This document shows, one piece after another, positions 4,869-63,994 of a stretch of DNA of 64,000 bases. Position 1 is the first letter of the stretch; each line of letters opens with the position of its first letter. Below the pieces are notes generated by a model. The model was not told where the DNA came from. It saw only the letters and a program-made list of their open reading frames with translations, and searched no databases. Both the position numbers and the translations under genes were made by a program. The DNA comes from a virus. The stretch is from positions 1 to 64,000 of the IMG/VR virus record IMGVR_UViG_3300045988_011313; one strand, 5' to 3'.

Positions 4869-7800
4869 TTATTCAAAGTAATGCACAATCATATCATGCA
4901 ATACAGTCTTATTTACATTTTCTTCTTCCATAGACAGCTTAATATATAACCAAGGGTTCCTCATTCTATCTCTACCTTTCTTAGTAGAACCAATAGCACT
5001 GGCTCTTGGTATATTAGCTCTCCAGATTCTAAACTTCTTCTTTAGGTCAGAAGGTCTTCCTAAGATATTATTTAGAGTAGAAGTACCTTGTTGATACTCA
5101 TTCCATACAGTTAAAGTATCAAATGTTGTATTAAGTAGATTACCATTCTTATCCCAGCTATCTGACCTAAACTCAAGGTTATTGAATATCTTATCTACAG
5201 GCATATCTGGGTTAGCTATTACAGTAGTATAGAATGGTTGATATACTCCAAAGAACATATTATAATCTCCTTCATTATGCAACCAAGGTTTGTATAGTGT
5301 ACCTGTACCTTCAACATTAAAGGCAATTCCTCTGTCCTCAAGGTTAGTAAAGTAAGGCACCTTCTCATAACTATAGAATGAGCTGAACTGACCTAATGGC
5401 TCAGAGAATGCTAAACACTCATCTTTAGTAATGAAAAATACGTCACCATTAACTTTATCATAATAAGTAACAAATCCATCAAAGTCTACTGGGTTCCATA
5501 TACTTATATCTTTAGAAGTCTTATTAATCCAAGAGTGGAAACCTAATCTATCTGATAGATTATCCAATTGACCATTAAATAAGAATATACCTTTTGTGAT
5601 GTCATCTATAAAGTAAATACCATTAGATGTCTCACACATAGACCATTTGTTAGTACATCCTATTCTATCAGAGATATATCTCTTACCATTAACCTTCCCA
5701 CTGTTTGCAATTTCAATAGGAACTCCATCAGTAGAAGAAATCTGCATATTCTCATTATACAAGATTTGGCTAATACCTCTATCTTGGAAGGCAAATATAT
5801 TGTTATTGAACCTTCTCAATGCCCTTACAGTACCCTTGTCACCATCAAGGTCAAGGGTAGATGCAAGAGTAATGTTAGTCCAAGTATCTACCAACTCTCC
5901 AGCAGTCTTATTTTTAGTCCAAGTGATTGAATTATGGAAATTATCCAAGTTCAATTTGTTTGGATTAATTGTCCTATAGTTGAAGAAGTTATTAGGCTGA
6001 GAATATACATCATTCATCAAGTTAAAATTTTCAGGGGTAATTGAGAAGTTACTTGTTTGACCCCTGTTCCTGTCATATCTACCATCAATGTTCACTCTTG
6101 TTTCACACATGAATGATACAATATCAGTCACTGCATTCTGGTCTTCAAGAGTAAAAGGATAAGTCTTGATATGGTCATATCTTTGGAAATAGGTATCACC
6201 TTCTTCCCACCTAATAGTAACACTGCTCTTGACTTCATTGTTGGTATCTACAAGAGAAATAGGGTCTCCACAAGGTAGCCATACATTATTCTCAAAGGCT
6301 TCCTCTGTCTGACCCCCAAATCTATTCTGTACATTGTCATTATATAATTCTCCTAACCATAGCCATCCATACTGAATACTTGATACAGCAGATATAGGAC
6401 CTCTTGGGACACCAGTAATAGTGTCTTGTGACACACTCTTGGCACTTCCTGACTTATCCCAATACATGTGCTGACCCTTTGGAGCACCTGCGTTCTGTGA
6501 ATTTACAACCCAAGTATCATTATAATTACCATCCTTAATATTAGGTAATATTCTTTGAGCACCTGTTGTAGTATAGTTCAAGGCTAACACAGCATGAGGA
6601 GTAGATTTATACTTAATCCTAACAGGGTCAGTACCTGTAATTTGGTCAGTAAATCTACTATCTACCTGTGTATAGCCACCATTAAACAGGGTATGTGCAT
6701 CAGTCTCTGCACTTTGAACTCCAGTAGTCATAATAGGATAGCCATCCTTTTTATCACCAATTCTTGAGATAGTAAGAAGCTTATCTACATTACCATAGTA
6801 GTTAATATCTGTAAGACCTGAGTTCTCTTGTGCAGGTAATCTAACAAGTGATACCTCATTAGAGTCAAACACTGCAACTCCTGATATGCCAGTTCTTATA
6901 TTACTACCACTTGTATAAGCATTCCATATATTACTTGAATCCAAGTAGACTGACTTATATGAATACCTCATATTAGACATTTTCTTCTTATCAAGCATAG
7001 CAGACCTATAGCCATCAGTAGCATACTTGGTGTTATTCAGTGAACCATTCCTATGCCAAGGGTACACAACAAATCCTGTGGTAAGATGCTTGGTATTACC
7101 AGTATCTTTCTTATAAGCAGTTAATTCATCAAACCAAAAGGCACCAGAGATTAATCCTCTCCATCCAAAATGAGAATTACCAAGATGTACTCCAAGCCCA
7201 CTATAACTAAAATCATTTTCTACACCAATAGGCTCCTTGTAGAATCCAGCAGGTAGCTCTGAACTATTATAGAAGTTATTAACAGGAGTGGAAGTTTGAA
7301 TATCAATATCTGAGGCAAATGCAGTTAGAGGAACCATACCTACTATCCTTAACTTCAATCCTGATGTATCAATACTTCTTACTTCATTATCAAACTCTAT
7401 GTCAGGAGAGTGAAAAGTAAGTATTGATTGGTCAATGTAATAATTCTCTGCATTGTTAGATACCCAACTTGCAACATATGAATCAGTTGCAGCATCACTA
7501 ACATAGGGACCAGGAGGGGGATTCCAAATACATTGAATTTCTGCATTTCTATTACTATTACCTGGGATAGGTCTATTATGTCTAAACTCAGCCCAAGCCC
7601 CCTTATTAACTGTATCAATATTGTATTGTGTCCCTTCAAAAGTAACTACAGTCCTATCATTAGACATAATACCTGCCCTTGAATATGCAGATGGATTTCC
7701 TAAGAATTGTCCTAATCCTACCCAGTCTCCACCCCAGGCACCTTCACTATTTTGATTATAATGGAAGGCTTTATACTCATCAAATGGTGCATTAGGTCTT

Positions 7801-9584
7801 GTAAACCAAGACGACTGTGCAAATGGTGAATTACCAAATCTATCAGATACATTATACACAGTAGGGCAAAGGATACCTTGACATACAGCTTCTCTATCAT
7901 TAATGGTAGGATATACTACAACTGGTCTCACTCTAACATACCCATTGTCAAGAAGCCTATTAATAATAGTAACATCATTTAATGTAAATTCAGCTACTGG
8001 TAATCCTATCTTATTATCATTATAAAAGGTAGTATCTATATGAACATTATTCCTGACATCATTAATCCATATAGGTTCTGACCATTTACCTGTATAGTGC
8101 TGGGCTTGAATACCAAATCTGTAATACTCAAGATATTTGAATGTCTTAAACTGATAAGAGTTCATCTTGAGTTGGTTACTATAAGGATAATAACCCTTGG
8201 CTTCTGGAGAACTTATACTTTTATTATAGGTAGAGAAGGTAATGCTCTTGCCCTTGAAGTAGCTTCTAATAGTAGAGTCAAGAGTTTTTCTCTTTGTCTT
8301 AATGTCTCCAAGGAATAGAGTATTATCCTTTTGAGCCATTGTTCCAAATACTACTTCTTCACCTCCTATATACAATAACTCAGTAGGGTCTACTGAATCT
8401 CCTGATGAGCCATTGTCAGTGTAAGTAACTTTAGCTATACTAAGAGTACCAGTCATATTACCTTTATTAGCTAATTGCATCCTTGCCTTATTACCATCGG
8501 TAATAGTAATAGTGAATGATGTGCCTGTACCCCAAGTCAGATAGTCACCTCCAAAGTTTATACAATAATATTCATCAGTACTAAATGTCCAAGACTTATA
8601 GTTTGACCCTGAGTGAGAAGGCTCATATTGGTCAAGTGTCTTTTCAGCACCACTGCCTATCCTATACATAGTCATCTTATTAGCTGGGAGATTAATCTCA
8701 TAACTACTAAGTTCATAATTTGACCTTCCTGTGGGAGGAGCTAAATCTACAACTCTTCTAACATCTGGAGTTGCATTTATGCTTGTTCTATGTATTGAAT
8801 ATATTCTGATGTAGTCAAATCTCTTGTCTACATTAGTCACCTCTATATTAAAACTGTTACTTACTTTATCCTCAGGACTTGCACCTCTGTTATTATATGA
8901 GATGTAGTAAAGTGGAGAAGTATAGAATATGTTACTTTCTTGACCATACTTATCAAAGTATGTGAAGGCATATTGTATTACTCCAGGAGCAAAACTACCA
9001 TTAGCTACAATATTCCTTTCAATAGTGATTTCCTCATTCAGACTAAGTGTCCTCACAAAGTTGAATGAATCAGTATTCCATTTGCTTACTACATCAGATG
9101 CAGCAGCTATGTTAATCATTCTTGGTTGATTTAGACCATCAGTCCAATATACTTTTCTTATATCAGCATTTTCATAGAATGAAATAGTTTCTATAGGGTG
9201 CTTATAATTGAATCCTAAGTTTCCTTTAAATAATATCTTTCCAGTTAATGCACCATTATTAAACCATAGCTTATAGATTCTATCTTCAGTATCCAAGTCC
9301 TCTGCACTTATGTCAGTATAGAGAGAAGACTTATCTCCACATGTAAATACAATCAACTCATCATTAATTAAAGCCTGCCCAATAGGAATACCTTTGATGT
9401 AGTCCCCTATACCTGCTATACTTGACTTCTTATTGCCTTTCTCATTTATCAAACTAAGCAGAGTACTCTCATTAGTTGGCATTACTCTAACATTCTTATT
9501 TTCATAAGAATATTCAGAGTTAAATGCAGAAGCTGATAAGTCCCTCTGCATTCCTTTTGTTTTGAAAATAACTTGTTTCTGCAT
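4869..9584 (-). CDS. very large tail structural protein (1571 aa), tail-tip/muzzle-like protein of crAss-like podoviruses
   Basis: Uninterrupted 4.7 kb ORF in the structural operon with a beta-rich Asn/Ser/Thr/Tyr/Gly composition. Size and position match the giant tail protein of crAss-like phages; assignment is by analogy only. Confidence 0.5.
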   Translation of the reverse strand: MQKQVIFKTKGMQRDLSASAFNSEYSYENKNVRVMPTNESTLLSLINEKGNKKSSIAGIGDYIKGIPIGQALINDELIVFTCGDKSSLYTDISAEDLDTEDRIYKLWFNNGALTGKILFKGNLGFNYKHPIETISFYENADIRKVYWTDGLNQPRMINIAAASDVVSKWNTDSFNFVRTLSLNEEITIERNIVANGSFAPGVIQYAFTYFDKYGQESNIFYTSPLYYISYNNRGASPEDKVSNSFNIEVTNVDKRFDYIRIYSIHRTSINATPDVRRVVDLAPPTGRSNYELSSYEINLPANKMTMYRIGSGAEKTLDQYEPSHSGSNYKSWTFSTDEYYCINFGGDYLTWGTGTSFTITITDGNKARMQLANKGNMTGTLSIAKVTYTDNGSSGDSVDPTELLYIGGEEVVFGTMAQKDNTLFLGDIKTKRKTLDSTIRSYFKGKSITFSTYNKSISSPEAKGYYPYSNQLKMNSYQFKTFKYLEYYRFGIQAQHYTGKWSEPIWINDVRNNVHIDTTFYNDNKIGLPVAEFTLNDVTIINRLLDNGYVRVRPVVVYPTINDREAVCQGILCPTVYNVSDRFGNSPFAQSSWFTRPNAPFDEYKAFHYNQNSEGAWGGDWVGLGQFLGNPSAYSRAGIMSNDRTVVTFEGTQYNIDTVNKGAWAEFRHNRPIPGNSNRNAEIQCIWNPPPGPYVSDAATDSYVASWVSNNAENYYIDQSILTFHSPDIEFDNEVRSIDTSGLKLRIVGMVPLTAFASDIDIQTSTPVNNFYNSSELPAGFYKEPIGVENDFSYSGLGVHLGNSHFGWRGLISGAFWFDELTAYKKDTGNTKHLTTGFVVYPWHRNGSLNNTKYATDGYRSAMLDKKKMSNMRYSYKSVYLDSSNIWNAYTSGSNIRTGISGVAVFDSNEVSLVRLPAQENSGLTDINYYGNVDKLLTISRIGDKKDGYPIMTTGVQSAETDAHTLFNGGYTQVDSRFTDQITGTDPVRIKYKSTPHAVLALNYTTTGAQRILPNIKDGNYNDTWVVNSQNAGAPKGQHMYWDKSGSAKSVSQDTITGVPRGPISAVSSIQYGWLWLGELYNDNVQNRFGGQTEEAFENNVWLPCGDPISLVDTNNEVKSSVTIRWEEGDTYFQRYDHIKTYPFTLEDQNAVTDIVSFMCETRVNIDGRYDRNRGQTSNFSITPENFNLMNDVYSQPNNFFNYRTINPNKLNLDNFHNSITWTKNKTAGELVDTWTNITLASTLDLDGDKGTVRALRRFNNNIFAFQDRGISQILYNENMQISSTDGVPIEIANSGKVNGKRYISDRIGCTNKWSMCETSNGIYFIDDITKGIFLFNGQLDNLSDRLGFHSWINKTSKDISIWNPVDFDGFVTYYDKVNGDVFFITKDECLAFSEPLGQFSSFYSYEKVPYFTNLEDRGIAFNVEGTGTLYKPWLHNEGDYNMFFGVYQPFYTTVIANPDMPVDKIFNNLEFRSDSWDKNGNLLNTTFDTLTVWNEYQQGTSTLNNILGRPSDLKKKFRIWRANIPRASAIGSTKKGRDRMRNPWLYIKLSMEEENVNKTVLHDMIVHYFE

Positions 9585-39957: not shown

Positions 39958-40034
39958 TTGGGATGGTGAGAATTGAACTCACCTGTAACCAACTACTCTT
40001 TCAGCTGCTTATCAGACAGAGGAGATACATCCCA
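39958..40034 (-). tRNA. atypical tRNA-like gene with an Ile(GAT) anticodon loop; same odd architecture as 39705..39781
   Basis: TGGGATG-TA-TCTCC-TCTGT-CTGATAA-GCAGC-TGAAAGAGTAGTTGGTTACAG-GTGAG-TTCAATT-CTCAC-CATCCCA-A. Confidence 0.5.
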
Positions 40035-40039
40035 ATATG

Positions 40040-40112
40040 CTGAGAAGATAGGAATTGAACCCATAACTGCTGGTTTTGGAGACCAGTGCTCTACCAATTG
40101 AGCTACTTCCCA
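40040..40112 (-). tRNA. tRNA-Trp(CCA)
   Basis: TGGGAAG-TA-GCTC..GAGC-A-CTGGT-CTCCAAA-ACCAG...ATGGG-TTCAATT-CCTAT-CTTCTCA-G. Confidence 0.8.
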
Positions 40113-40121
40113 ATTACTTAG

Positions 40122-40194
40122 TTGCAGGTAGTGGATTTGCACCACTGGTCTCCCCATTAAGGGTAGGGCGAGATTACTACTTCTCTAACCTGCT
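40122..40194 (-). tRNA. non-canonical tRNA-like gene (anticodon loop CCCTTAA; nominal CTT/Lys), possible pseudogene or specialised tRNA
   Basis: The cloverleaf folds (D GAGA/TCTC, anticodon stem CCCTA/TGGGG). However, it has an A1xA72 mismatch, C at position 33 and T-loop TGCAAAT (G55). Confidence 0.4.
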
Positions 40195-40303
40195 AAAACA
40201 TCAAATCATTGATTACTTCTTCTTATTGCACTCAGAGAACTTTCAGAAATGATGTCATCAAGTATTGCAAGCTACTTGACTAAACTTCTTGCAAAAGTTT
40301 TTG

Positions 40304-40375
40304 CGGGACCTGTAAGACTCGAACTTACATCTAAGGGTTAACAGCCCCTTGTTCTAACCTTTGAACTAAAGACCC
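40304..40375 (-). tRNA. tRNA-Asn(GTT)
   Basis: GGGTCTT...AGGGG-CTGTTAA-CCCTT...GTAAG-TTCGAGT-CTTAC-AGGTCCC-G, with one U-U mismatch in the acceptor. Confidence 0.75.
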
Positions 40376-40382
40376 ATTTATG

Positions 40383-40456
40383 TTGCTCCTATTAGAATTG
40401 AACTAATGACCTTTTCCTTGTAAGGGAACTATTCTAAACCACTGAACTAAGGAGCA
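40383..40456 (-). tRNA. tRNA-Val(TAC)
   Basis: Acceptor TGCTCCT/AGGAGCA, anticodon loop CTTACAA, T-arm ATTAG-TTCAATT-CTAAT. Confidence 0.75.
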
Positions 40457-40542
40457 TTGATAGGGCAGTTTCTTTAACCTCTAACTGCCCAAAAGATGGT
40501 TCAAGCAAAAGCTCAACATTATGAAAACATGAAAACATAGTG

Positions 40543-40616
40543 TGGACCTTGTGAGATTTGAACTCCTCTAAAACATTGCAAATGTCTTGTGCTAACCTGA
40601 TTACACTACAAAGCCC
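40543..40616 (-). tRNA. tRNA-Ala(TGC)
   Basis: Acceptor GGGCTTT/AAGGTCC with the G3-U70 identity pair. Anticodon arm AGACA-TTTGCAA-TGTTT. The T-stem has only 3 Watson-Crick pairs. Confidence 0.7.
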
Positions 40617-40621
40617 ATTAG

Positions 40622-40694
40622 TATGGGTACTTGGACTTGAACCAAGGACAACTGGCTCCCAAAGCCAGCATTCTACCTACTGAATTACACCCAT
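40622..40694 (-). tRNA. tRNA-Pro(TGG)
   Basis: ATGGGTG...CTGGC-TTTGGGA-GCCAG...CTTGG-TTCAAGT-CCAAG-TACCCAT-A. Confidence 0.8.
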
Positions 40695-40700
40695 ATATTG

Positions 40701-40786
40701 CGGAGAGCATTGTACTCGAAACAAATACCTTATTAGGGTACTCACTATTTAGCAGATAGGACTATCACCTTGATAGTTTACTCTCC
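40701..40786 (-). tRNA. tRNA-Ser(GCT), type II
   Basis: 86 nt. Acceptor GGAGAGT/GCTCTCC, anticodon loop CTGCTAA, variable stem TACC/GGTA. Confidence 0.75.
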
Positions 40787-40827
40787 ATACTTTCCTTCAC
40801 CAATATGTCAAAGAACACCTATTATTG

Positions 40828-40912
40828 CGGAGAGATGAGGTCCCGACCCCCAAGCATTTTACTGCTCCCATTGTTTTCAAGACAAGTCCCAGTCCCACTG
40901 AGTTACCTCTCC
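40828..40912 (-). tRNA. tRNA-Ser(TGA), type II
   Basis: 85 nt. Acceptor GGAGAGG/TCTCTCC, anticodon loop CTTGAAA. Unusual T-loop GTCGGGA. Confidence 0.7.
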
Positions 40913-40966
40913 ATTGCCTACCTACCTCTGTAGGATAGGACTTCAGTAGATTAAAAGTGGATTAGC

Positions 40967-41037
40967 AGGATGTGGGAGAATTGAACTCCAATCTTCTGAT
41001 TGACAGTCAGACACATTAACCACTATGCTACACACCC
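40967..41037 (-). tRNA. tRNA-Asp(GTC)
   Basis: GGGTGTG-TA-GCAT..ATGT-G-TCTGA-CTGTCAA-TCAGA. It is 71 nt; the T-stem appears to be 4 bp (GGAG/CTCC) if the 7-bp acceptor is kept. Confidence 0.7.
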
Positions 41038-41044
41038 TAAGTTG

Positions 41045-41116
41045 TAGAGCTATTGGGAATTGAACCCAAGTTTCTGCCTTGAGAGAGCAGTTACCTATCC
41101 ACTAGTAGATAGCTCT
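41045..41116 (-). tRNA. tRNA-Glu(CTC)
   Basis: Acceptor AGAGCTA/TAGCTCT, anticodon arm CTGCT-CTCTCAA-GGCAG, T-arm TTGGG-TTCAATT-CCCAA. Confidence 0.8.
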
Positions 41117-41122
41117 ATATTG

Positions 41123-41196
41123 TATTGGGTATGGGGCTTGAACCCATAATCTCCACATTGAAAGTGTGGTGACTTAACCACTTCGTCTAACCCAAC
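41123..41196 (-). tRNA. tRNA-Glu(TTC)
   Basis: Acceptor GTTGGGT/ACCCAAT, anticodon arm CCACA-CTTTCAA-TGTGG, T-arm ATGGG-TTCAAGC-CCCAT. Confidence 0.8.
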
Positions 41197-41202
41197 ATTT
41201 AG

Positions 41203-41274
41203 TACCCCCTGAGGGAATTGAACCCCCATTAAAGGCTTAGAAGGCCCTTGCATTATCCATTATACTAAGAGGGC
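41203..41274 (-). tRNA. tRNA-Arg(TCT)
   Basis: Acceptor GCCCTCT/AGGGGGT, anticodon arm AGGGC-CTTCTAA-GCCTT, T-arm GGGGG-TTCAATT-CCCTC. Confidence 0.8.
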
Positions 41275-41291
41275 ATTTACCTTTACTATTG

Positions 41292-41364
41292 TTACCCCAA
41301 TAAGACTTGAACTTATGTTACAGGAGCCAAAATCCCGTGTAATAACCAACTATACTATGGGGCA
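41292..41364 (-). tRNA. tRNA-Gln(TTG)
   Basis: Acceptor TGCCCCA/TGGGGTA, anticodon arm CGGGA-TTTTGGC-TCCTG, T-arm ATAAG-TTCAAGT-CTTAT. Confidence 0.8.
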
Positions 41365-41365
41365 A

Positions 41366-41411
41366 TAAAAAAGGAATGTTACTCTAAACAACTGGTTAAA
41401 GTAACATTCCT
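41366..41411 (-). terminator. terminator-like hairpin plus U-run between the array promoter and the first tRNA (possible attenuator)
   Basis: Minus-sense 11-bp stem aggaatgttac-N18-gtaacattcct followed by TTTTTTAT, ending 2 nt before tRNA-Gln. Confidence 0.55.
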
Positions 41412-41457
41412 AGCAATGGAAATTTCCTAAAACCAATCTCTCTTTCTTAATTGCTCT

Positions 41458-41491
41458 GCAAAGGTAAGCAAAATATTTGAAACCACCAAAC
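41458..41491 (-). promoter_or_regulatory. Bacteroidota-type promoter (-33 TTTG / -7 TAccTTTGCA) upstream of the tRNA array
   Basis: The reverse complement reads gTTTGgtggtttcaaatattttgctTACCTTTGCAgag. Confidence 0.6.
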
Positions 41492-41578
41492 TTTTTCCCA
41501 ATTATTTTTAATTCAAGCATCATTTTCTTGTCATGAAGGAGTAAAGTTGTGCTTTGGTTTAGGTCTAATCTATATTCT

Positions 41579-41980
41579 TTAAGTAATTCCTACTAACTTG
41601 TTAGCCCAAGATTCAGTATAAAAACTGTAGTAGTTCCACTTAATTCCTATCTTACTACATAGATAATGCACTATGTTATGTAGTAATGATGGGATTCCTA
41701 TTACTATCAAATATAGTGGACCTAATATATCAGATTGCTTACTATGACCACATTCATGTTGGATAGACTCTTGTAATGACATAGGATTCACAAAGAGGTA
41801 ATCTCCTAATGACATAGCTGAAGGTAGAGCAATATTTACTATAATAGTATTACCATCTGCCTTACCTTCTCTGTATGCAGCTTGGCACAATATACCCTCT
41901 ATACATAAAGCAAGTATATTCTGTGGAAATTGCCACAGCCACTTAATAGAATCCTTAAAGTAATTACTTATCTTCTTCAT
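41579..41980 (-). CDS. membrane-associated HExxH protein, putative zincin-like peptidase (133 aa)
   Basis: Motif IQHECGHSKQS plus hydrophobic segments. It is the first gene of the minus-strand transcription unit, after a ~290-nt leader. Confidence 0.4.
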   Translation of the reverse strand: MKKISNYFKDSIKWLWQFPQNILALCIEGILCQAAYREGKADGNTIIVNIALPSAMSLGDYLFVNPMSLQESIQHECGHSKQSDILGPLYLIVIGIPSLLHNIVHYLCSKIGIKWNYYSFYTESWANKLVGIT

Positions 41981-42276
41981 TCTTGTATACAGTAATATCC
42001 CTGAAGCTTTGTTATGGCTTCATAAGAGTTATTTTTAATCTCCTTTTAACTACTAACTTCATTAGACCAGTTCTTGATTATACCCCTATAGCATGATTCC
42101 CTGTGCATTTTCTCAGGTGGATGTGCTCATGCAATCTAATTTATATAGTAGCAATTTTAGTAGTATTGGGGACAACCTCCTCTCTATGTAAGGTGAGAGT
42201 ACTAACCCAACTTCTAACCCATTACTTTTTAACCTCATGGGTGAAAGGTTAATCCACCATTAACCTCTACTGGGGT

Positions 42277-42309
42277 GCAAAGGTAAGTAAAAATTTTGAT
42301 ATATGCAAA
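42277..42309 (-). promoter_or_regulatory. Bacteroidota-type promoter (-33 TTGC / -7 TAccTTTGCA), leftward arm of the divergent control region
   Basis: The reverse complement reads aTTTGCatatatcaaaatttttactTACCTTTGCAcccc. Confidence 0.6.
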
Positions 42310-42486
42310 TATATAAATAAAAAATTTATTGCATAAAAAATAATTTTTTTTTTTTAATTTTTTTTTTCTATTGTATTTTTAGGAGTGGTACTTACACCAA
42401 CCACACCCTCCCCATCACTTAGCCCAAGGGGGTCCTACCCCCGTAGGCTAAAATTAACATTATTAACAATTTAACATTTTATCATT

Positions 42487-42744
42487 ATGGGAAATCTAAC
42501 TTTCAATGACACTCTGACAGTAGAGCAGTTCAAGGCACAAATGAATGTATCACGCATTGATGTGAAGAAGAATCCTAAGACAGGCAAGCTCTTCTTCACC
42601 TATGGTGCAAAGACAGGAGCAGTTGCAGTCAAGGGTATTCCAGCACATCCTATGCTGAGCAATGTCACTGGCTCTGATGGTAGCTCATTCTGGTTGCTCC
42701 ATGAGGAGGGACAGGGTGGTGCCCCTGTATTGGCAAGCTTCTAA
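42487..42744 (+). CDS. hypothetical small protein (85 aa), first gene of the rightward module, relatively GC-rich
   Basis: ORF preceded by a GC-rich structured leader and followed by a strong terminator. Contains KKNPKTGKLFFTYG. No function recognised. Confidence 0.55.
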   Translation: MGNLTFNDTLTVEQFKAQMNVSRIDVKKNPKTGKLFFTYGAKTGAVAVKGIPAHPMLSNVTGSDGSSFWLLHEEGQGGAPVLASF

Positions 42745-42749
42745 GCAGG

Positions 42750-42786
42750 AAGGCAACAGGCAGGAATGCCTGTTTGCCTTTTCATT
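42750..42786 (+). terminator. rho-independent terminator
   Basis: Hairpin aaggcaacaggca-ggaa-tgcctgtttgcctt followed by TTTCATTT. Confidence 0.7.
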
Positions 42787-42823
42787 TCCTCTGAGCATTA
42801 ATAGTATTTAAGATAATTTAAGG

Positions 42824-43069
42824 ATGAAAGAAGAATTAGATATGCTCTTTCTATTGGAGCATTTCAGTCTTAAAGATTTAGTAAAGGCTGAAGAAGAGTA
42901 TGTTAATTATGAATATGCTAACACCGACAATATTGTTGAGTGTTATTCTGATGTAGAAGAGTATATAAATGATGAATGTACAGAAACTATTACAACAAGA
43001 GAGTATTCAACCTCTATTTATACTAGTTGGATGAATCTTTCATTTGAATCTTTAATATTCAATGATTAG
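42824..43069 (+). CDS. small highly acidic protein (81 aa)
   Basis: Glu/Asp/Tyr-rich (EEEYVNYEYANTDNIVECYSDVEEYINDECTE), in an early position. Function unknown. Confidence 0.5.
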   Translation: MKEELDMLFLLEHFSLKDLVKAEEEYVNYEYANTDNIVECYSDVEEYINDECTETITTREYSTSIYTSWMNLSFESLIFND

Positions 43070-43152
43070 AGGAAACTCTATTTACATCTCTTCCTGACAA
43101 GAGGATTAGAGAGGTAAGTAGAGTGTTTAGGAGTTCAGTGCATTGAGTAAGT

Positions 43153-43205
43153 AGGATAGGATAATAGAGTGTGGAATACACTTTATGTCCTATCTTCCTT
43201 GTTTT
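43153..43205 (+). terminator. long imperfect hairpin with a T-rich tail (terminator candidate)
   Basis: aggatagga...agtgt-ggaat-acact...tcctatct followed by tccttgttttg. Confidence 0.45.
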
Positions 43206-43669
43206 GTATTGAATGTAACTTGTTGATTTATTGAGAGTTAATAGTATGGATTGACATATTGTCAGATGTGTGACATTATATCACTACCTCACAATTATTA
43301 CCTCATTACAATCAGCAACAAAGAACAATCATCCAATAATGTATGACTGTTTTTACTGTTACAGTGATAATACAAAACTACACTCCAACAAACAAACAAT
43401 TGAACAAACACATATTAATTGTTGTTAAAATGTCTTCAATTAGTACCAATAATATTGAGAGGTGCTACTGAAATTGGGTGCAGATGTGAAGAATAGTACG
43501 CTATTACAGGACTGTGGTGAGAGTGATATTAATTACTCAATAAACTTAGTGATGATAAAAAGGACAGAATCAACATAAAATTGCACAGAGAGTAAGAAGG
43601 TTTAGAAACTAAATATATTAGGTCAGAATTAAGACATATAAAAGGCAACAACTAATATTATATGATTTA

Positions 43670-43740
43670 GGAGGTATTAGTACAATGTTAGTACATAACT
43701 TATTGCAGTTATATGGTAGTTCAAGTCTATCATACCTCCC
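43670..43740 (+). tRNA. compact tRNA-like element with a non-canonical anticodon arm (6 bp + 6 nt, or 5 bp + 8-nt loop TTATTGCA)
   Basis: GGAGGTA-TTA-GTAC-AATGTTA-GTAC-ATAACT-TATTGC-AGTTAT-AT-GGTAG-TTCAAGT-CTATC-A-TACCTCC-C followed by TTTTT. It has a perfect 7-bp acceptor and a canonical T-loop. Confidence 0.4.
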
Positions 43741-43769
43741 TTTTTATCAACTTATAAACAAACAATCAA

Positions 43770-44093
43770 ATGAGCAAACAAGCATCTTACAATGGCATAC
43801 TTTATCAGATAGAGTATCAGCCACAACTGTCAAACAATGATTACACACAACACAAAGTGTATCATATCAAGACAGAAGAAGAGAATTATGGCAAATCAAG
43901 AAAAGCTATTGCATCCATCATGGAAGATGAGCTTGGTTACACACAAGGATATTTATGGTCTGCGGGTGAATATCATATAAAGAATACACAGCAGCCATCT
44001 ATAATTAATGGTTTGCATCCATACTATAAATTCACCTATGATGAGGACTTGGATGTATATGTATTTACACTTGTTATACCTTATGATGATTGA
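43770..44093 (+). CDS. hypothetical early protein (107 aa)
   Basis: ORF on the plus strand. Its stop overlaps the next start (ATGA). Confidence 0.5.
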   Translation: MSKQASYNGILYQIEYQPQLSNNDYTQHKVYHIKTEEENYGKSRKAIASIMEDELGYTQGYLWSAGEYHIKNTQQPSIINGLHPYYKFTYDEDLDVYVFTLVIPYDD

Positions 44094-58051: not shown

Positions 58052-59092
58052 ATGGCATTCAGCAAAGGTAAATCTTCTGTGAGCCTTGATGATATTCTAA
58101 GTAAAGTGACAGAGGCAGACATCCTGTCACATTACTTGGGAGTCACAGAGGTTCCGTGCATAATCAATAGTCCTCTTAGACAGGATAGGAGACCCTCCTT
58201 TGGTCTTTACTCTTCTGATGGGATAAGGATATTTTATATAGACTTAGCCACAAAGGATAGTGGGGGTCTGTTTGACCTTCTTGGTAAAATGTGGAATTGT
58301 GGTTTTAAGGAGGTCTTAAGTAAAATTAATAATGACATTTCAAAGTTCTGTGGTGGTGCCAGTATTCATTCATACACTCCCTGTGCTGTAAGAAGTACAA
58401 ATAGTTACAACAAAGATACAGACTTGCAGTGCAAAGTCAGAGATTGGAGAGATTATGATATTGAATATTGGGCATCCTATGGTATAACTTTGGAATGGCT
58501 CAAGTATGCAGAGGTTTACCCTATATCTCATAAGATTGTCATAAAAGATGGTCATAGATATGTGTTTGGGGCTGATAAATATGCCTATGCTTATGTAGAA
58601 CACAAGGAAGGTAAGGTTACTCTAAAGATATACCAGCCTTTCAATAAAGCTGGTTATAAGTGGAGTAACAAGCATGACAATTCTGTAGTAAGCTTATGGA
58701 CTAAAGTACCTGAATATGGGGAACAGATTTGCATTTGTTCTTCACTGAAGGATGCCTTATGTCTATGGGCTAACACAGGTATTCCATCTCTTGCCATTCA
58801 AGGTGAGGGGTATAGGATGAGTGATACTGCAATTAGTGAGCTGAAAAGAAGATATAAACAAGTCTTCATTTGCTTGGATAATGATGAGCCAGGATTAAAG
58901 GATGCTCAGAAATTATCTGAAGAAACAGGTTTTACTAATGTAGTATTACCACCCTTTAATGAAGGGAAAGATATTAGTGACTTGATGAAAGCTAAGGGCA
59001 AAGATGAGTTCCTTAGAATAATCAAGCCTTTATTTGACTCTTCAAGACAAGAGGACAATGATTGGAATGATTTGCCCTTTTGTATAGATTAA
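58052..59092 (+). CDS. DNA primase, Toprim-domain (DnaG-like), 346 aa
   Basis: Toprim signature ICICSSLKDALCLW...LAIQGEGY...VFICLDNDEPGLKDAQKL (conserved E, then DxD). Confidence 0.65.
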   Translation: MAFSKGKSSVSLDDILSKVTEADILSHYLGVTEVPCIINSPLRQDRRPSFGLYSSDGIRIFYIDLATKDSGGLFDLLGKMWNCGFKEVLSKINNDISKFCGGASIHSYTPCAVRSTNSYNKDTDLQCKVRDWRDYDIEYWASYGITLEWLKYAEVYPISHKIVIKDGHRYVFGADKYAYAYVEHKEGKVTLKIYQPFNKAGYKWSNKHDNSVVSLWTKVPEYGEQICICSSLKDALCLWANTGIPSLAIQGEGYRMSDTAISELKRRYKQVFICLDNDEPGLKDAQKLSEETGFTNVVLPPFNEGKDISDLMKAKGKDEFLRIIKPLFDSSRQEDNDWNDLPFCID

Positions 59093-59138: not shown

Positions 59139-59831
59139 ATGGAAGCAAGAAAAATTACAGTCGTACAGACTAAGAATCAGAAAAAGAGTGTTATTATGTC
59201 AGCAGCCACAACCCTTGCTGAGTTGAAAAGTGACTTGAGAGACAATGGCATTGACTATGATGGTATGACCTTCTTTGAAGGCACATCAAAGGTTGAATTG
59301 AAGAATGATACTTCTGTTCTTCCTCATGATGTTCCTTACAAGGGAACTGTCACCAATGAGTTGGTTTTCATGCTTACTAACACTAACAAGAAAATCAGAA
59401 GTGGTGCTACTACAATGAGCAGAGCTGAGGTATACAGTGCTATCAAATCTATGGGTTTGCAGGATGCTTGTGTAGAGAAGTTTGGCAAGAACTTCACTAT
59501 GTGTAAGACTGCTGACCTTATTGCATTAGTACAGAGCAATGGTGCTTCAAAGCCTGCTCCTGCTACTCCTAAAGCTGAGGCTAAGGCTGAGGCTAAGGTA
59601 GAAGCACCTGCAAGTAGTGATGGTGAGTGTGTTGATACTGTAGCAAGAGCTGCTATTAGTAAGTTGGTGGAAATTCTTGAGGACAATGGCACAATCGAGG
59701 ATTATGAGAAAAAGGAATTGATTGGCATTCTTGGGGGTAAGGTTGCAGTAAGTGCTGAACCTTCTGGGGAGCCTTCTCCTTATTCTGATGATGAGATTGG
59801 TGATATGTTCGCAGAAATGGGTGTCAATTAA
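59139..59831 (+). CDS. fusion protein: N-terminal ubiquitin-like (beta-grasp) candidate domain + HeH-like helices + Ala/Lys/Glu/Pro low complexity + acidic tail (230 aa)
   Basis: Over aa 5-89 the pattern is beta-beta-alpha-beta-beta (ITVVQTK, KSVIMS, TTLAELKSDLRDNGI, MTFFEG, ELVFMLT), ending KKIRSG89. This is followed by PKAEAKAEAKVEAP. Confidence 0.4.
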   Translation: MEARKITVVQTKNQKKSVIMSAATTLAELKSDLRDNGIDYDGMTFFEGTSKVELKNDTSVLPHDVPYKGTVTNELVFMLTNTNKKIRSGATTMSRAEVYSAIKSMGLQDACVEKFGKNFTMCKTADLIALVQSNGASKPAPATPKAEAKAEAKVEAPASSDGECVDTVARAAISKLVEILEDNGTIEDYEKKELIGILGGKVAVSAEPSGEPSPYSDDEIGDMFAEMGVN

Positions 59832-59897
59832 CAAAAGTAAGTAACAGTAGGTAAGGAGGTTAGGAATGCCCCCTTACCTACTTTTTTTTACAGTAAT

Positions 59898-61190
59898 ATG
59901 AGTGGAGAAACAATTAAATTAATTGAGGAGGGGATAGAGAAACTATATAACTCCTTAATGGACAAGCCACTTCGAGTATTAGACATATTCAATGATTTCT
60001 TTGGAGAGGATAAAGTTGATATGCAAGGGTATTGGAGTTTGGACAAGTTCAAACTTTGGATGTATACAGAGCCTTTATCTACTTATATCTCTGTTGGTAA
60101 TATAGACAGGAATGACTGGAATATATATGAAACACAGGCTATTACTGATTTACCTGAAGACCAAGTAGGAAAGGCTGTTAATATGCTTACAAGTACTATG
60201 GCAAAAGAAAGAATTGGTAATGCTAAGTTCAGTAACATATTCATTCTTGTACATTTTCCTCATGTAAGAGTAACTAATGAGCATGATAGATTTGTGGATA
60301 TTAACCATCTGTGGGCTAAGGTGAAAGTAATGTATGATGGCACATTGAATGGTGGATTTACACTTAATAGGTCAGAATATACTATGCTTCACATTAGTAG
60401 TGGATATATGCACAGTCATATCAGTAGTATTCCTAAAGGTGACTTTACCCGTTTTCAGAATCCTTGCACAGGCAGTGGTCCTATTAATGGTACTATTGGT
60501 GCCCTCAATAGGGACTATGATGAGGATATGTGGAATATGTTCTGTCTTGAGCTAAGTAAGTATGTAACTGTAGAGTCCGTTGCTGGCAGACCTTATAAAT
60601 ATTTGGAAAAGTTAGGTACCAATGATATGGAAATAGGTATAGATAGATTCATTACATATCTGTCTCCTGATTACCATGGAAATGTCATTACTCCTAATAA
60701 ATTCAAGGAGTTTGTAAGGTACTTTATTAGCACTAAGAAGCTCAAATTTAACTATGTCAATGGTTCTTATTCTATTGGAATGTCACTTATTGAATTTATT
60801 GTACTCATCAGTAATGAGTTCATTAAATGGTATAATGACCAGTTCAATAAAGAGGAATTAACTATTAAGTTTGCAGACTTGAAGAGACATGGTATCTTGA
60901 AAGAGTGCATCATAGACAATGAAAAGATTTACTATGATAGGAGCAGGGATAATGTAAACAACTATGCTCAGTATATAGGCAAGAAAGTCTGTGTATTCAA
61001 GGGAAGAGAGATAACTGTAGATATTACAGATATTGCAGAAGTGAAGAATGAGAACAAGAGTATAATTCTTAATACTCATACTGCATTATACATATTAACA
61101 ACAATACTCAAAGTATTAAATTACAGGTATGGAAGAAACAAAGCAACCCACGAAGGTAATCAGCTTGGTACAGAAGTCAGGTATCTATAA
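59898..61190 (+). CDS. hypothetical protein (430 aa), possible E2-like (UBC-fold) component
   Basis: Central FILVHFPHVRV...YMHSHISSIPKGDFTRFQNPCTGSG (His motif followed by a Cys loop). Lies directly upstream of the JAB and E1 genes. Weak, inference only. Confidence 0.3.
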   Translation: MSGETIKLIEEGIEKLYNSLMDKPLRVLDIFNDFFGEDKVDMQGYWSLDKFKLWMYTEPLSTYISVGNIDRNDWNIYETQAITDLPEDQVGKAVNMLTSTMAKERIGNAKFSNIFILVHFPHVRVTNEHDRFVDINHLWAKVKVMYDGTLNGGFTLNRSEYTMLHISSGYMHSHISSIPKGDFTRFQNPCTGSGPINGTIGALNRDYDEDMWNMFCLELSKYVTVESVAGRPYKYLEKLGTNDMEIGIDRFITYLSPDYHGNVITPNKFKEFVRYFISTKKLKFNYVNGSYSIGMSLIEFIVLISNEFIKWYNDQFNKEELTIKFADLKRHGILKECIIDNEKIYYDRSRDNVNNYAQYIGKKVCVFKGREITVDITDIAEVKNENKSIILNTHTALYILTTILKVLNYRYGRNKATHEGNQLGTEVRYL

Positions 61191-62337
61191 TTATAAGCTG
61201 ATTATTCCAGCAGAAGTGGAAAGAAAGATAAGGTTTACCTGTCAGAAGGTATGGAATACTGAATGGTCAGGTACATTGTTCTTTACACATGAAGGCTCAT
61301 TTGAGAATAATGACCTTGTGATAAGATGTGTGGACATTTATATCATGGATATTGGAACTCAAGCCTATACAGAGTTTGATATGAATCCTGATGTAATATC
61401 CTACATGTGTGAAAATCCTGAATTGCTAGATTGTCAGATGGGTCTTATACATTCCCATAACAATATGAGTACTTTCTTTAGTGGAACAGATACTGCTACT
61501 CTAAAGGAAGAAGGCAGGGATAGAAACAATTTTGTGTCTCTTATTGTGAATAATGCAGGTTCCTATACTGCTGCAATTACAAGGAGAGTCAAGTCAAAGC
61601 AGGTCAGGGAGTCTGTATCTTATGAGTTCTTTGGTGATGGTGAAAAACAGGACACTAAGGAATATGTAAGTGATGCAGATGAGATTGAGTGGTTCTATCT
61701 TAAAATAGAGAAAGAAGATGAGAATTATTCCTTTCCAGACATGGCAGCAAGACTTGAGGAAATCAAACAGGCTAAAGCAGAGAAAGCCAAGAAAGTGCAG
61801 ACACCTGTATATCAAAGTGGCTATAAGCATACTATTGCTAATTCCCATGATACAAAGGCAGGTCCAGCAAATCTTGTCAAGAAGGAAGCTGATAAGCCTA
61901 AGGTAGACCAGCCATCCCTCTTTGACAATGTGGATGATTTGCCATTTGATGATAACTATAGTCTGCCTTATGGTCAGGTGACACTTGATAAAGTCACTTT
62001 GAAATCTCTTGTACTCCAATTGGTTACAGGCAGTATTCTTATTTCTAATGATAGTAAGATTGATATTCCTAAATGGGCTAAGTCAATGTCTACATTGTAT
62101 GAAAAGAGATTTGGCAAGGGTGAAGAAGGCATGGAAAATTTCAAAATGTGGGCAGATACCTATACAGAATATCTGACATGGTATGTGACAGATGAGAAAT
62201 TAGAAAAGCTTGGCTTTGATGAAACAGAAATTTGTGCTATTTGTGCCCATGATATGATAGAGGAGCTTACAAAACTTCCTGAAAATGATTATATCAAAGG
62301 GTATATTGATGCACTTCAAAAATACTTAATATTATGA
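61129..62337 (+). CDS. JAB/MPN (JAMM) metallopeptidase-domain protein (402 aa)
   Basis: Upstream Glu (NTEWSGTLFF) and an exact JAMM motif HSHNNMSTFFSGTD (HxHx7Sx2D). The start overlaps the upstream ORF by 62 nt and the stop overlaps the E1 start (ATGA). Confidence 0.75.
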   Translation: MEETKQPTKVISLVQKSGIYNYKLIIPAEVERKIRFTCQKVWNTEWSGTLFFTHEGSFENNDLVIRCVDIYIMDIGTQAYTEFDMNPDVISYMCENPELLDCQMGLIHSHNNMSTFFSGTDTATLKEEGRDRNNFVSLIVNNAGSYTAAITRRVKSKQVRESVSYEFFGDGEKQDTKEYVSDADEIEWFYLKIEKEDENYSFPDMAARLEEIKQAKAEKAKKVQTPVYQSGYKHTIANSHDTKAGPANLVKKEADKPKVDQPSLFDNVDDLPFDDNYSLPYGQVTLDKVTLKSLVLQLVTGSILISNDSKIDIPKWAKSMSTLYEKRFGKGEEGMENFKMWADTYTEYLTWYVTDEKLEKLGFDETEICAICAHDMIEELTKLPENDYIKGYIDALQKYLIL

Positions 62338-63230
62338 ATGAAGAAGTAACAATTTCACCAGAAATAATTGACAGGTATCTTGCAGGGGTACCTATCCCTG
62401 TACCTGTAGAGGATGGTGACAGCATTAGCTTTGAACTTTCAGAAGAAGAACAGGCTATTCTTGACCAAGCTGTAGAAGATGCACATCAGGAAATACCATC
62501 AAACTCTGCAACTTTGCTTGTAGATGAAACTACAAGTAGGTTTAGTTCTGCCATTTGGTATGAGAACATTCAGAAGAAAACTGTCATTTTGGCAGGTGTA
62601 GGTGGCATTGGTAGTTATGTAGGCTTCTTATTGGCAAGGATGAAGCCAGCTTCTATGTTTATCTATGATAATGACATAGTAGAAGCTGTCAATATGTCAG
62701 GTCAGTTGTATGGTCAGTCTGATTTAGGTAGGTCTAAAGTATCTGCACTGGCTGAGATGATTAGAAACTATGCTAACTATAGTAGTGTCTTTGCAATAAA
62801 TGAAAGATTCACTGATGAATCTGAAGCATCAGACATTATGATTTGTGGCTTTGATAATATGGCAGCAAGAAAACTTTTCTTTAATAAATGGGTAAATCAT
62901 GTTCAATCCAAACCAGAGGAGGAAAGGAAGAATTGCCTGTTCATTGATGGTAGGTTGGCAGCAGAGGAGTTTCAGGTATTGTGTATTAAGGGAGATGATG
63001 AGTATAACATCAATAGGTACAATAATGAGTTCCTATTCTCTGATGCAGAAGCTGATGAGACTGTCTGCTCCTATAAACAAACTACCTTCTGTGCAAATAT
63101 GATTGCATCCTATATGGTCAATCTGTTTGTGAACTTTTGTGCTAATCAGTGTGAGCCTCTCATTGACAGAGACTTGCCATTCCTTACCACATATAATGCA
63201 GAGACAATGTATCTTAAAACTGAAGTATAA
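62334..63230 (+). CDS. ThiF/MoeB/E1-like adenylyltransferase (298 aa)
   Basis: LAGVGGIGSYVGFLLARM (GxGxxG Rossmann), IYDNDIVEAVNMSGQLY (DxDxV..sN..rQ-like) and ICGFDNMAARKLF. Confidence 0.75.
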   Translation: MNEEVTISPEIIDRYLAGVPIPVPVEDGDSISFELSEEEQAILDQAVEDAHQEIPSNSATLLVDETTSRFSSAIWYENIQKKTVILAGVGGIGSYVGFLLARMKPASMFIYDNDIVEAVNMSGQLYGQSDLGRSKVSALAEMIRNYANYSSVFAINERFTDESEASDIMICGFDNMAARKLFFNKWVNHVQSKPEEERKNCLFIDGRLAAEEFQVLCIKGDDEYNINRYNNEFLFSDAEADETVCSYKQTTFCANMIASYMVNLFVNFCANQCEPLIDRDLPFLTTYNAETMYLKTEV

Positions 63231-63994
63231 TGGAATTTAGCCAAAGATTTGTATATAGTGCTATAGGAGTCTTCAATAGTAGTGATACCAATGGTGTAGC
63301 TTGGCTTAGGAGTGAGTTATCTCTTGATAGTAACAATGTATTTAGTAGAAGCCTTGTTGTTGAAGTAGATGATAATGAGGTAGAGATACCTGTGATTGCA
63401 AGAGAACACTTTGAGGGTTTAGTGTCAGAGAAGATAGACCACCCATTAGCTGTAGGAACCAAGAGGATAATACTGCCATTGTATGATAATGCACCAAGTC
63501 AGGAGAGAAGAACTTTTGATAGTATCATAAAGCAGTTGTTTACTAATGTAAGATGTCATGAAAGATTGCAGAAGATAACTACCAACAGGGGTGAAGTGTA
63601 TTATGGTGGCAAAGGTATTATCTTTGATGAAAGCTATACCCCATTGCTATTATGTACATTAACTGCAAGAAAGGTACATACAGAAGAAGGTGGCAATAGT
63701 ATGGTCTATTATAGACCTGTATGCCATGTTAGCCCTAAAGTATTCTTAGAGTCTGACAAGTTGATTAACAAAGGTATTATTAAGAAACTTATTCCTATCT
63801 ATACAAGTAGAGAGGTAAGTCTTCCTAATTACAATTTTGATGTCAATCCAGAGAGTAAAAAGGTGAAAGTTGTAGTGGATAATTTTGATAAGTTCTTTAT
63901 AGAGCCTATCAAGCCTACTCCATCTGCCACTACTAATGATGCACTGAATGAATGCCTTATTGACAATATGGATGACATAATGATGTTGATATGA
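63230..63994 (+). CDS. hypothetical protein (254 aa), translationally coupled to the E1-like gene
   Basis: TAATG overlap with the E1 stop. No motif recognised. Confidence 0.45.
   Translation: MEFSQRFVYSAIGVFNSSDTNGVAWLRSELSLDSNNVFSRSLVVEVDDNEVEIPVIAREHFEGLVSEKIDHPLAVGTKRIILPLYDNAPSQERRTFDSIIKQLFTNVRCHERLQKITTNRGEVYYGGKGIIFDESYTPLLLCTLTARKVHTEEGGNSMVYYRPVCHVSPKVFLESDKLINKGIIKKLIPIYTSREVSLPNYNFDVNPESKKVKVVVDNFDKFFIEPIKPTPSATTNDALNECLIDNMDDIMMLI

Follow-up and report, generated by a model that had tools for sequence, protein, structure and literature searches.

The window analyzed in this work is the whole 64,000-nucleotide stretch of the IMG/VR virus record IMGVR_UViG_3300045988_011313 (positions 1 to 64,000). 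Near its end it carries a cassette of five closely linked genes, all on the + strand, which encode a predicted ubiquitin-like protein (Ubl) precursor, a candidate E2-like protein, a JAMM/JAB metallopeptidase, a ThiF/E1-like adenylating enzyme, and a fast-evolving fifth protein. The genes are located at 59139-59831 (gene (i), 230 aa), 59898-61190 (gene (ii), 430 aa), 61129-62337 (gene (iii), 402 aa), 62334-63230 (gene (iv), 298 aa), and 63230-63994 (gene (v), 254 aa). A DnaG-type primase gene (58052-59092) lies directly upstream of gene (i).

A sequence-only reading of this DNA had described five co-directional + strand open reading frames (ORFs) after the primase, and the ORF list gave identical coordinates. 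The junctions could be read in the sequence as described: ATGA at 62334 joins genes (iii) and (iv), TAATG at 63230 joins genes (iv) and (v), and genes (ii) and (iii) overlap by 62 nt. All the motif strings that had been quoted for genes (i) to (iv) were present and are given below with each gene.

The adenylating enzyme and the metallopeptidase

Judged from their sequences, the identities of the two enzymes are solid. The product of gene (iv) is a ThiF/E1-like adenylating enzyme of one domain, preceded by a variable N-terminal extension, and it contains the strings GVGGIGS, DNDIVEAVNMSGQLY, and GFDNMAARK. Its match to Pfam ThiF (PF00899) scored 64.9 bits (E = 8e-18), above the curated cut-off of 28.1, which agrees with its earlier description as a ThiF/E1 Rossmann enzyme. 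Among 60 non-redundant homologues, G88, G90, G91, D112, N120, K135, D174, R179, and C245 were invariant, and R69 was found in 59. By analogy with MoeB, ThiF, and UBA5, we take these residues to include the Gly-rich ATP loop, the Arg finger, the Asp and Lys that contact ATP, the Mg Asp, and the Cys of the crossover region.

In a profile-profile comparison, gene (iv) matched the ThiF protein of the plasmid PRTRC cassette (hhalign probability 98.5%, E = 1.8e-15). The relatives found among PDB sequences were MccB, UBA5, PaaA, TcdA, Cap2, ThiF, and MoeB, and these matches covered mainly the nucleotide-binding half. In PADLOC, gene (iv) matched only the E1 half of the Cap2 (E1-E2) models, with E-values down to 6e-13, and no other cassette protein had a PADLOC match. 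The NCBIfam models that it matched (ThiF, MoeB, Cap2, and PRTRC-ThiF) all scored far below their cut-offs. No rhodanese domain was found in gene (iv). The phage E1 proteins are 228-400 aa long with a single ThiF domain, that of the Flavobacterium phage FpV4 being the 228-aa form. The N-terminal extension is absent from FpV4, has about 65 residues in the window, and reaches about 150-175 residues in ΦcrAss001 and cr106_1 (for example, L083:8509-9660 and L088:8456-9667 vs. L084:9142-9828); it had no detectable similarity to anything.

The product of gene (iii) has its predicted catalytic domain at residues ~25-165, followed by a C-terminal region of ~235 residues. The exact JAMM motif that had been noticed in it is part of a full constellation, E45, S47, G48, H108, S109, H110, S118, and D121, that was invariant in 68 of 68 sequences. 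E45 sits in the stretch T-E-W-S-G-x-L-F, and residues 108-121 are HSHNNMSTFFSGTD. The hhalign comparison with PRTRC-A (DUF2016 + Prok-JAB) gave a probability of 75.5% (E = 2.4e-5) over 97 columns, in which both motifs are included, and weak PDB-sequence matches were obtained with CSN5 and an archaeal (Pyrococcus) JAMM1. Residues ~170-402 had no match.

The ubiquitin-like precursor

The precursor architecture of gene (i) is solid. An N-terminal module (59139..59405, + strand, residues 1-89), predicted to be a beta-grasp and ending in K-K-I-R-S-G89 (the string KKIRSG, residues 84-89), is followed by a helical C-terminal extension (59406..59831, + strand, residues 90-230) that varies between phages. 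The module ended in Ser-Gly in 144 of 144 non-redundant homologues, with the pattern K-x-[KR]-S-G; two outlier sequences ended in SG and AG, respectively, and the terminal Gly was universal in the 146 sequences. G89 was the sole invariant column in an alignment of 72 sequences (≤80% identity). The sequence past this Gly had from 1 to ~250 residues and was unrelated between clades.

Natural variants of the gene separate the two parts at this position. Five loci stop the ORF one or two residues past the Gly, ending in SG-K, SG-IC, or, in three loci, SG-KF, each followed by the stop codon. In three loci, an HNH homing endonuclease gene lies exactly after the Ser-Gly codons (L014:6368-6880, L055:6592-7065, and L088:4976-5491, the last being cr106_1); here the Ubl ORF ends in SG-IC or SG-KF, and a separate ORF beyond the endonuclease gene encodes the C-terminal part. 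A further locus (L056) keeps the split, with the C-terminal part as a separate ORF and no endonuclease gene, and in another (L140) a 77-aa module stands alone, with gene (ii) directly next to it and the extension absent. Together with the universal Gly, these natural splits and the free-standing form show that the module is autonomous, that the extension need not be covalently attached, and that the C-terminal Gly is the selected feature.

The low-confidence AlphaFold2 (AF2) model of the module gave the order strand 4-10, strand 15-21, helix 26-35, strand 44-47, and strand 74-80, followed by a flexible tail to G89. When this model was compared with the PDB using Foldseek, the top 50 matches were almost all ubiquitin, SUMO1, NEDD8, ISG15, the ubiquitin-like TINCR, Raf-RBD, and DIX domains, aligned over ~80 columns with template modeling (TM) scores of 0.6-0.7 (normalized to the target) and probabilities of 0.97-1.0. 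From this model, a beta-grasp fold is probable. The suggestion that the first ~89 residues form a Ubl has thus gained from several sides, namely the invariant terminal Gly, the splits at this Gly, the beta-beta-alpha-beta-beta order, and the Foldseek matches to ubiquitin folds.

Sequence databases were less informative about gene (i): there was no informative match in Pfam, NCBIfam, or PADLOC and no meaningful PDB-sequence profile match, and the extension (residues 90-230) had no match in Pfam or the PDB. The PHROG matches obtained in direct family scans of genes (i), (ii), and (v) were all of "unknown function". In gut phages, the extension of gene (i) carries an acidic tail, SPYSDDEIGDMF, whose acidic-aromatic end S-P-Y-S-D-D-E-I-x-D-M-F (59790-59831 in the window, residues ~215-230) is reminiscent of the C-terminal interaction tips of single-stranded DNA-binding (SSB) proteins. 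Environmental forms end otherwise, and a loose acidic-tail pattern occurred in only 16 of 72 sequences.

The candidate E2-like protein and gene (v)

Gene (ii) encodes an N-terminal helical domain (residues 1 to ~110) and a conserved core, and it is a candidate E2-like acceptor of the Ubl. Y170, S173, H174, C190, G192, E226, S227, and P232 were invariant both in the 71 locus-derived sequences and in 149 of 149 representatives, and they fall in three motifs, Y170-x-H-S173-H174, C190-x-G192, and E226-S227-x-x-G-x-P232. The first two are contained in the string YMHSHISS...FQNPCTGSG (residues 170-194), which had been loosely likened to an E2 active site. C190 is the only conserved Cys of the protein, with the invariant H174 and S173 lying 16-17 residues upstream. 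As a sequence pattern, a Cys with an upstream His and Ser is suggestive, though not specific to E2 enzymes.

The family is large. An exhaustive HMMER search returned 2,828 clusters (50% identity) at E ≤ 1e-3, of which 2,022 had E ≤ 1e-10. The best 150 of the 2,828 clusters were 175-449 aa long, nearly all of them 360-450 aa, and these best 150 included only full-length, phage-type proteins and no cellular relatives. Nine diverse homologues gave no recurrent Pfam match at E ≤ 10. In the AF2 model, the N-terminal helical domain (residues 1 to ~120) had predicted local distance difference test (pLDDT) scores of 70-91. The predicted order that follows, taken from an unreliable part of the model, is a helix at 100-110, four strands between 114 and 144, a loop with H174 and C190, and helices at 195-224; as modeled, this order would be compatible with a UBC fold. 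The model matched only uncharacterized crAss-like orthologues in BFVD.

Gene (v), translationally coupled to the E1 gene through the TAATG overlap, is fast-evolving. An iterative search found a homologue directly downstream of the E1 gene in 118 of 155 loci. Across nine genera, only G129 and I183 were invariant, and there was no conserved Cys. Gene (v) had no informative match in Pfam, NCBIfam, PHROG, PADLOC, or PDB-sequence profiles. The unusual long forms and the alternative downstream genes of environmental loci had no Pfam match.

Occurrence and synteny of the cassette

The window comes from a crAss-like gut phage. Its DNA shares 80% identity with that of bajarodcaudo virus 1 (PQ006092), and its proteins are syntenic with those of Steigviridae crAss-like phages. 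By tblastn against the phage collection, genes (i) and (ii) were found in 74 records each, with an identical organism breakdown. The matched records included 29 Flavobacterium FpV4-like phages, and the Bacteroides crAss-like carriers belonged to the Steigviridae genera Kehishuvirus (including ΦcrAss001), Wulfhauvirus (DAC15), Kolpuevirus, Lahndsivirus, Mahlunavirus, and Mahstovirus. The block of the window corresponds to Gp79-Gp75 of ΦcrAss001, for which GenBank labels Gp77 "metalloprotease", Gp76 "ThiF", and the other members hypothetical, and to gp53-gp49 of FpV4. In FpV4 the uracil-DNA glycosylase (UDG) gene lies on the opposite side of the block, which indicates that the five genes move as a unit.

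Eighty IMG/VR loci were sampled through the E1 protein and 80 through an FpV4-anchored JAB profile, and every ORF of these loci was scanned with hidden Markov models (HMMs) of the five families. In the first-pass scan, all five genes were present in 92 sources, and a further 62 had genes (i) to (iv) with gene (v) under the threshold. The remaining sources were nearly all cut by contig ends, and two apparent exceptions (L138 and L158) do have a diverged gene (i). Genes (i) to (iv) always came in this order and on one strand. Their collinearity holds for ~150 independent loci of gut and environmental phages, even where protein identity falls to 15-25%, and goes along with translational coupling. 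This co-conservation is solid, and the synteny survey that the earlier description called for came out in its favor.

Genes for the primase, UDG, a DnaB-like helicase, and a Sak4-like ATPase were found within 6 kb upstream of the cassette, both in the gut set (83 loci) and in the environmental set (67 loci). Since the same replication genes lie upstream in the two sets, the cassette is a fixed part of the replication module. Its carriers number in the hundreds among the related Bacteroidota phages and span Bacteroides, Flavobacterium, and marine and freshwater metagenomes.

Expression signals and local context

A hairpin resembling a terminator or attenuator was found by RNA folding at 59837..59891 (+ strand), within the 66-nt gap between genes (i) and (ii). 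It consists of GTAGGTAAGG...CCTTACCTAC followed by T8. The folding energy was -25.1 kcal/mol (z = -4.64), and none of 200 shuffled sequences was equally stable. Of 109 distinct intergenic regions, at least 74 had a hairpin with a T-run at the equivalent position; the stem sequences were wholly different between clades, so that the structure and not the sequence is conserved. The standard terminator scan, in which the loop is limited to 8 nt, misses it. In appearance, the element is an intrinsic terminator or attenuator. With it, transcripts of the Ubl would be in excess of those of the enzymes, as would suit a stoichiometric modifier that has catalytic partners.

Gene (iii) is read in the +1 frame relative to gene (ii). 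Their overlap (61129-61190) has 62 nt in the window and roughly 10-200 nt in nearly all other loci. Across the junction, gene (iii) retains its conserved "ME..." start and gene (ii) its "...Y-x-[LI]" end, which suggests that the translational coupling of the two genes is obligatory.

On a larger scale, the GC skew of the window switches sign near 42 kb (~40000-44000), from negative before to positive after, and in the region examined, from 51.7 kb to 64 kb, all genes are on the + strand. The switch seems to mark the place where genome modules with opposite directions of transcription meet.

Comparison with known systems

The closest known systems are the PRTRC (ParB-related, ThiF-related) cassettes, which were classed as operon type 6d by Iyer, Burroughs, and Aravind (2006) and occur on plasmids and integrative and conjugative elements (ICEs; PMC1779556). 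Iyer et al. placed them among the E2-containing, rhodanese-less operons and proposed that the JAB frees the Ubl at its terminal Gly (PMC1779556). Our comparison set contained the cassettes of nine plasmids and ten genomes, with the order ParB - E - C (Prok_Ub) - F - B (Prok-E2_D) - A (DUF2016 + JAB) - ThiF. When the phage families were aligned with the six PRTRC families by hhalign, the result was positive for E1 and JAB only, and it was null for PRTRC-E and PRTRC-F. PRTRC ThiF was also the plasmid match of the phage E1 with the longest coverage.

The likeness extends beyond the two enzymes, which are the closest detectable relatives of the phage ones (98.5% and 75.5%). The PRTRC Ubl ends in G-[TA]-K-G (...TKG) and the phage module in ...TKSG, in both cases a basic tail plus Gly, and 3 of 15 distinct PRTRC Ubls have an extension of ~60 residues past the Gly, the same architecture as phage gene (i). 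The gene order is parallel (Ubl ... Cys protein - JAB - ThiF), and several plasmid cassettes adjoin SSB, DnaN, and helicase genes besides ParB, a neighborhood of replication and partition genes. Examples of such flanking genes are L184:10195-10567, L185:1-587 and 7480-8037, and L187:7285-7875.

The differences are also clear. The annotated neighborhoods of the relatives of the window contain no ParB, PRTRC-E, or PRTRC-F genes, and phage genes (i) and (ii) have no significant profile similarity to Prok_Ub and Prok-E2_D. The phage JAB has a long C-terminal region instead of DUF2016, gene (v) is unique to the phage cassette, and the carrier is a phage and not a plasmid or ICE. Of the NCBIfam PRTRC models (TIGR03734-03742), PRTRC_ThiF gave 33.5 bits vs. 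144.75 and PRTRC_A gave 13.4 vs. 101.8, and the B, C, E, and F models had no match in the cassette. We conclude that the cassette is a phage-borne relative of the PRTRC-type Ubl/JAB/E1 operons, with PRTRC as its nearest relative, two components that belong to no assigned family, and an unusual biological setting.

Type I Bub (6E.1) operons share with the phage cassette a compact E1 and a Ubl made as a fusion pre-protein that is cut by the JAB of the operon, a cleavage with experimental precedent there (PMC11601596). Bub differs in its Tyr/Ser oxyesters, its Ubl-E2 and JAB-E1 fusions, and its DUF6527 serine protease, whereas the phage genes are separate and the phage E1 and gene (ii) keep an invariant Cys. 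No Pfam match to DUF6527 was found in the five cassette proteins. The Bil system (BilABCD) has the same four-part logic of Ubl, E2, JAB, and E1, and it conjugates its Ubl to lysine without an E3 (PMC11601596). However, BilD is a large IAD-AAD-CYS E1 (PMC11601596) and the phage E1 has a single domain; Bil is host-encoded and antiphage, and by the architecture of its E1 the phage cassette falls outside it.

Type II CBASS (an antiphage signaling system based on cyclic oligonucleotides) resembles the cassette in having a JAB and an E1 adenylation domain that is related at the HMM level (PADLOC, 6e-13). There, however, Cap2 unites E2 and E1 in one fusion protein, which conjugates a CD-NTase by its C-terminus, and there is no separate Ubl. 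The phage cassette contains no CD-NTase, its JAB lacks a Cap3 match, and the similarity of its E1 to Cap2 is limited to the E1 half. A phage precedent is offered by TAPI and TAPK of lambda and T1, in which a phage Ubl with a conserved C-terminal Gly and an extra domain adjoins a JAB predicted to release it (PMC1779556). This pair lacks an E1, belongs to the tail-assembly module, and occurs in a different phage group.

Proposed mechanism

We propose that the cassette processes and activates a phage-encoded Ubl and most likely conjugates it to a target, a reading to which we give a probability of roughly 0.6. Gene (i) would make a pre-Ubl, composed of a beta-grasp of ~89 residues ending in Gly89 and a dispensable, variable extension. 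The JAMM peptidase (iii) may cut after Gly89, as we infer from BubCD/BubAB, QbsD/QbsE, and Mec+/CysO. The E1 (iv) would then adenylate Gly89 with ATP and probably take the Ubl onto Cys245, from which it could pass to Cys190 of gene (ii), acting as a divergent E2-like carrier. In the last step, the Ubl would be attached to a lysine of a phage or host protein. Gene (v) may be a specificity factor or a substrate, and the hairpin after gene (i) would let the Ubl exceed the enzymes. The fixed position in the replication module, together with the location of PRTRC among plasmid replication and partition genes, suggests by analogy that the target is probably connected with genome replication or its protection.

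Several results weigh against this proposal, and most of them concern gene (ii). It gave no E2/UBC match in Pfam, NCBIfam, or PADLOC, no PDB-sequence match with profiles of 9 or 149 sequences, and no significant Foldseek match of its model in the PDB (best E = 1.4). The conserved core (122-261) was modeled with a pLDDT of 25-45 from a shallow alignment, so the fold is unreadable. The hhalign comparison with PRTRC-B (Prok-E2_D) reached a probability of 0.3% (E = 0.18) over 23 columns around the Cys. This short alignment places the phage P...F-C-x-G-x-G on the PRTRC-B P-x-x-N...G-x-(I/V)-C-x-G, which we treat as a lead and not as evidence. For gene (i), the AF2 model had a mean pLDDT of 55.5 (low confidence, from a shallow alignment), the Foldseek E-values ran from 2.6e-3 to 2e-2 with none ≤ 0.001, and hhalign detected no profile similarity to Prok_Ub. 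Gene (iii) matched Pfam Prok-JAB (PF14464) with 20.6 bits (E = 4e-4), below the cut-off of 25. The best NCBIfam models for gene (iv) were ThiF and MoeB, the small single-domain type also used in sulfur-carrier pathways. Finally, our literature search turned up no target, conjugate, or biochemical activity for the cassette or for PRTRC.

The complete-looking set of the sequence-only reading holds for the Ubl precursor, the JAB, and the E1. The E2 role of gene (ii) received no backing from Pfam, NCBIfam, PADLOC, PDB-sequence profiles, hhalign, or Foldseek, and what speaks for it is the His...Cys-x-Gly motif, the operon position, and the predicted four-strand meander, and these only. We put the odds that gene (ii) is an E2 at roughly even. 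The top, non-significant PDB match of its model (E = 1.4) was the Ctf19-Mcm21 kinetochore heterodimer. Its proteins carry RWD domains, a kind of E2-like fold that lacks catalytic activity; we mention this as a curiosity and not as evidence.

Alternative functions

Three functional options had been named for the cassette: conjugation, counter-defence, and sulfur transfer. Computation does not separate them, and the data favor conjugation over sulfur transfer. Under the latter, which we consider unlikely, the JAB-trimmed and E1-adenylated Ubl would receive a thiocarboxylate, and gene (ii) would hand the sulfur on to a nucleotide, to DNA or tRNA, or to a cofactor that replication requires. The E1 is indeed of the small MoeB/ThiF type, with ThiS/MoaD adenylyltransferases as its top NCBIfam matches, the invariant Cys of gene (ii) could hold a persulfide, and the cassette is located among genes of nucleotide metabolism and replication. 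Sets of a JAB, an E1, and a small beta-grasp protein are established in CysO/Mec+ and QbsE/QbsD (PMC1779556).

The tail of the Ubl argues otherwise, since it is Ser-Gly, or Ala-Gly in one locus. In known sulfur carriers, the C-terminus is a Gly-Gly tail. A rhodanese domain is missing from the E1, and no rhodanese, desulfurase, or PP-loop match was found with Pfam and NCBIfam in the five proteins. The NCBIfam ThiF/MoeB scores were all far below the cut-offs, and the closest full-length relatives of the E1 and JAB are those of PRTRC, which is grouped with the E2-containing, rhodanese-less operons. Sulfur transfer is disfavored because of the Ser-Gly tail, the lack of a sulfur-transfer domain, and the kinship with PRTRC rather than with ThiS/MoaD.

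Even less likely, in our estimate, is that the cassette serves mainly to disrupt host immunity of the Ubl type (type II CBASS Cap2/Cap3, Bil) and not replication. The JAB could strip host conjugates, or the phage Ubl and E1 could tag host defence proteins and so inactivate them. Mimics of host defence components are common in phages, and the phage E1 matches the E1 part of Cap2 (PADLOC, down to 6e-13). The characterized bacterial E1/E2/JAB operons, namely type II CBASS as well as Bil, are antiphage (PMC11601596). On the other hand, the phage JAB had no PADLOC (Cap3) match, a full set of Ubl, E1, and accessory proteins exceeds what a deconjugase needs, and the core position in the replication module is fixed in phages that differ widely in host and habitat. 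As a rule, anti-defence genes are accessory and variable. This alternative concerns the target only and is compatible with the biochemistry proposed above; as the purpose of the cassette, the fixed position and the PRTRC parallel point to replication control over counter-defence.

It is very improbable that the E1 acts as MccB or PaaA do, on the C-terminus of a peptide as in the synthesis of ribosomally synthesized and post-translationally modified peptides (RiPPs), and not on a protein modifier. MccB (E = 2.4e-11) and PaaA are the best PDB-sequence matches of the E1 profile, but what aligns is only the stretch that binds the nucleotide (profile positions 78-150). The candidate substrate is a folded, conserved domain of 75-90 residues with the beta-grasp order and not a short peptide, and the presence of the JAB and the PRTRC kinship fit Ubl systems; we rejected the MccB-like reading on the ground that the similarity does not reach beyond the Rossmann motif. 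The co-conservation of the genes and the invariance of the catalytic residues, which go far beyond chance, also led us to reject a random arrangement or an artefact.

Significance of the cassette

GenBank already labels single genes of the cassette as "ThiF", "E1 enzyme family protein", or "metalloprotease". Our literature search (open papers, without their supplementary tables) found no description of the cassette, of the Ubl precursor, or of a connection between crAss phages and ThiF or ubiquitin.

Tentatively, and at somewhat less than even odds, we suggest that a large clade of Bacteroidota phages has a self-contained, core Ubl-conjugation pathway, in which gene (ii) would represent a new E2-like family and the whole would be the phage sibling of PRTRC. 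The clade would comprise the Steigviridae-type crAss-like phages, the FpV4-like Flavobacterium phages, and many environmental relatives. Whatever its activity, gene (ii) defines a very large uncharacterized family with a sharply defined Cys/His/Ser/Glu site. ΦcrAss001 and DAC15, which infect culturable Bacteroides, and FpV4, from Flavobacterium psychrophilum, carry the cassette, so the predictions are directly testable. The cassette also opens a way into the function of PRTRC, which is widespread on plasmids and ICEs and has been without a known role for ~20 years.

The characterized bacterial pathways with Ubl, E1, E2, and JAB components, type II CBASS along with Bil, are host-encoded and antiphage, and Bub is suspected to be so. 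Here, the phage owns the machinery and keeps it in a conserved replication module rather than in an accessory island. If our proposal is true, mobile elements would run or protect their replication by Ubl tagging of their own, mirroring the Ubl-based antiphage immunity of their hosts.

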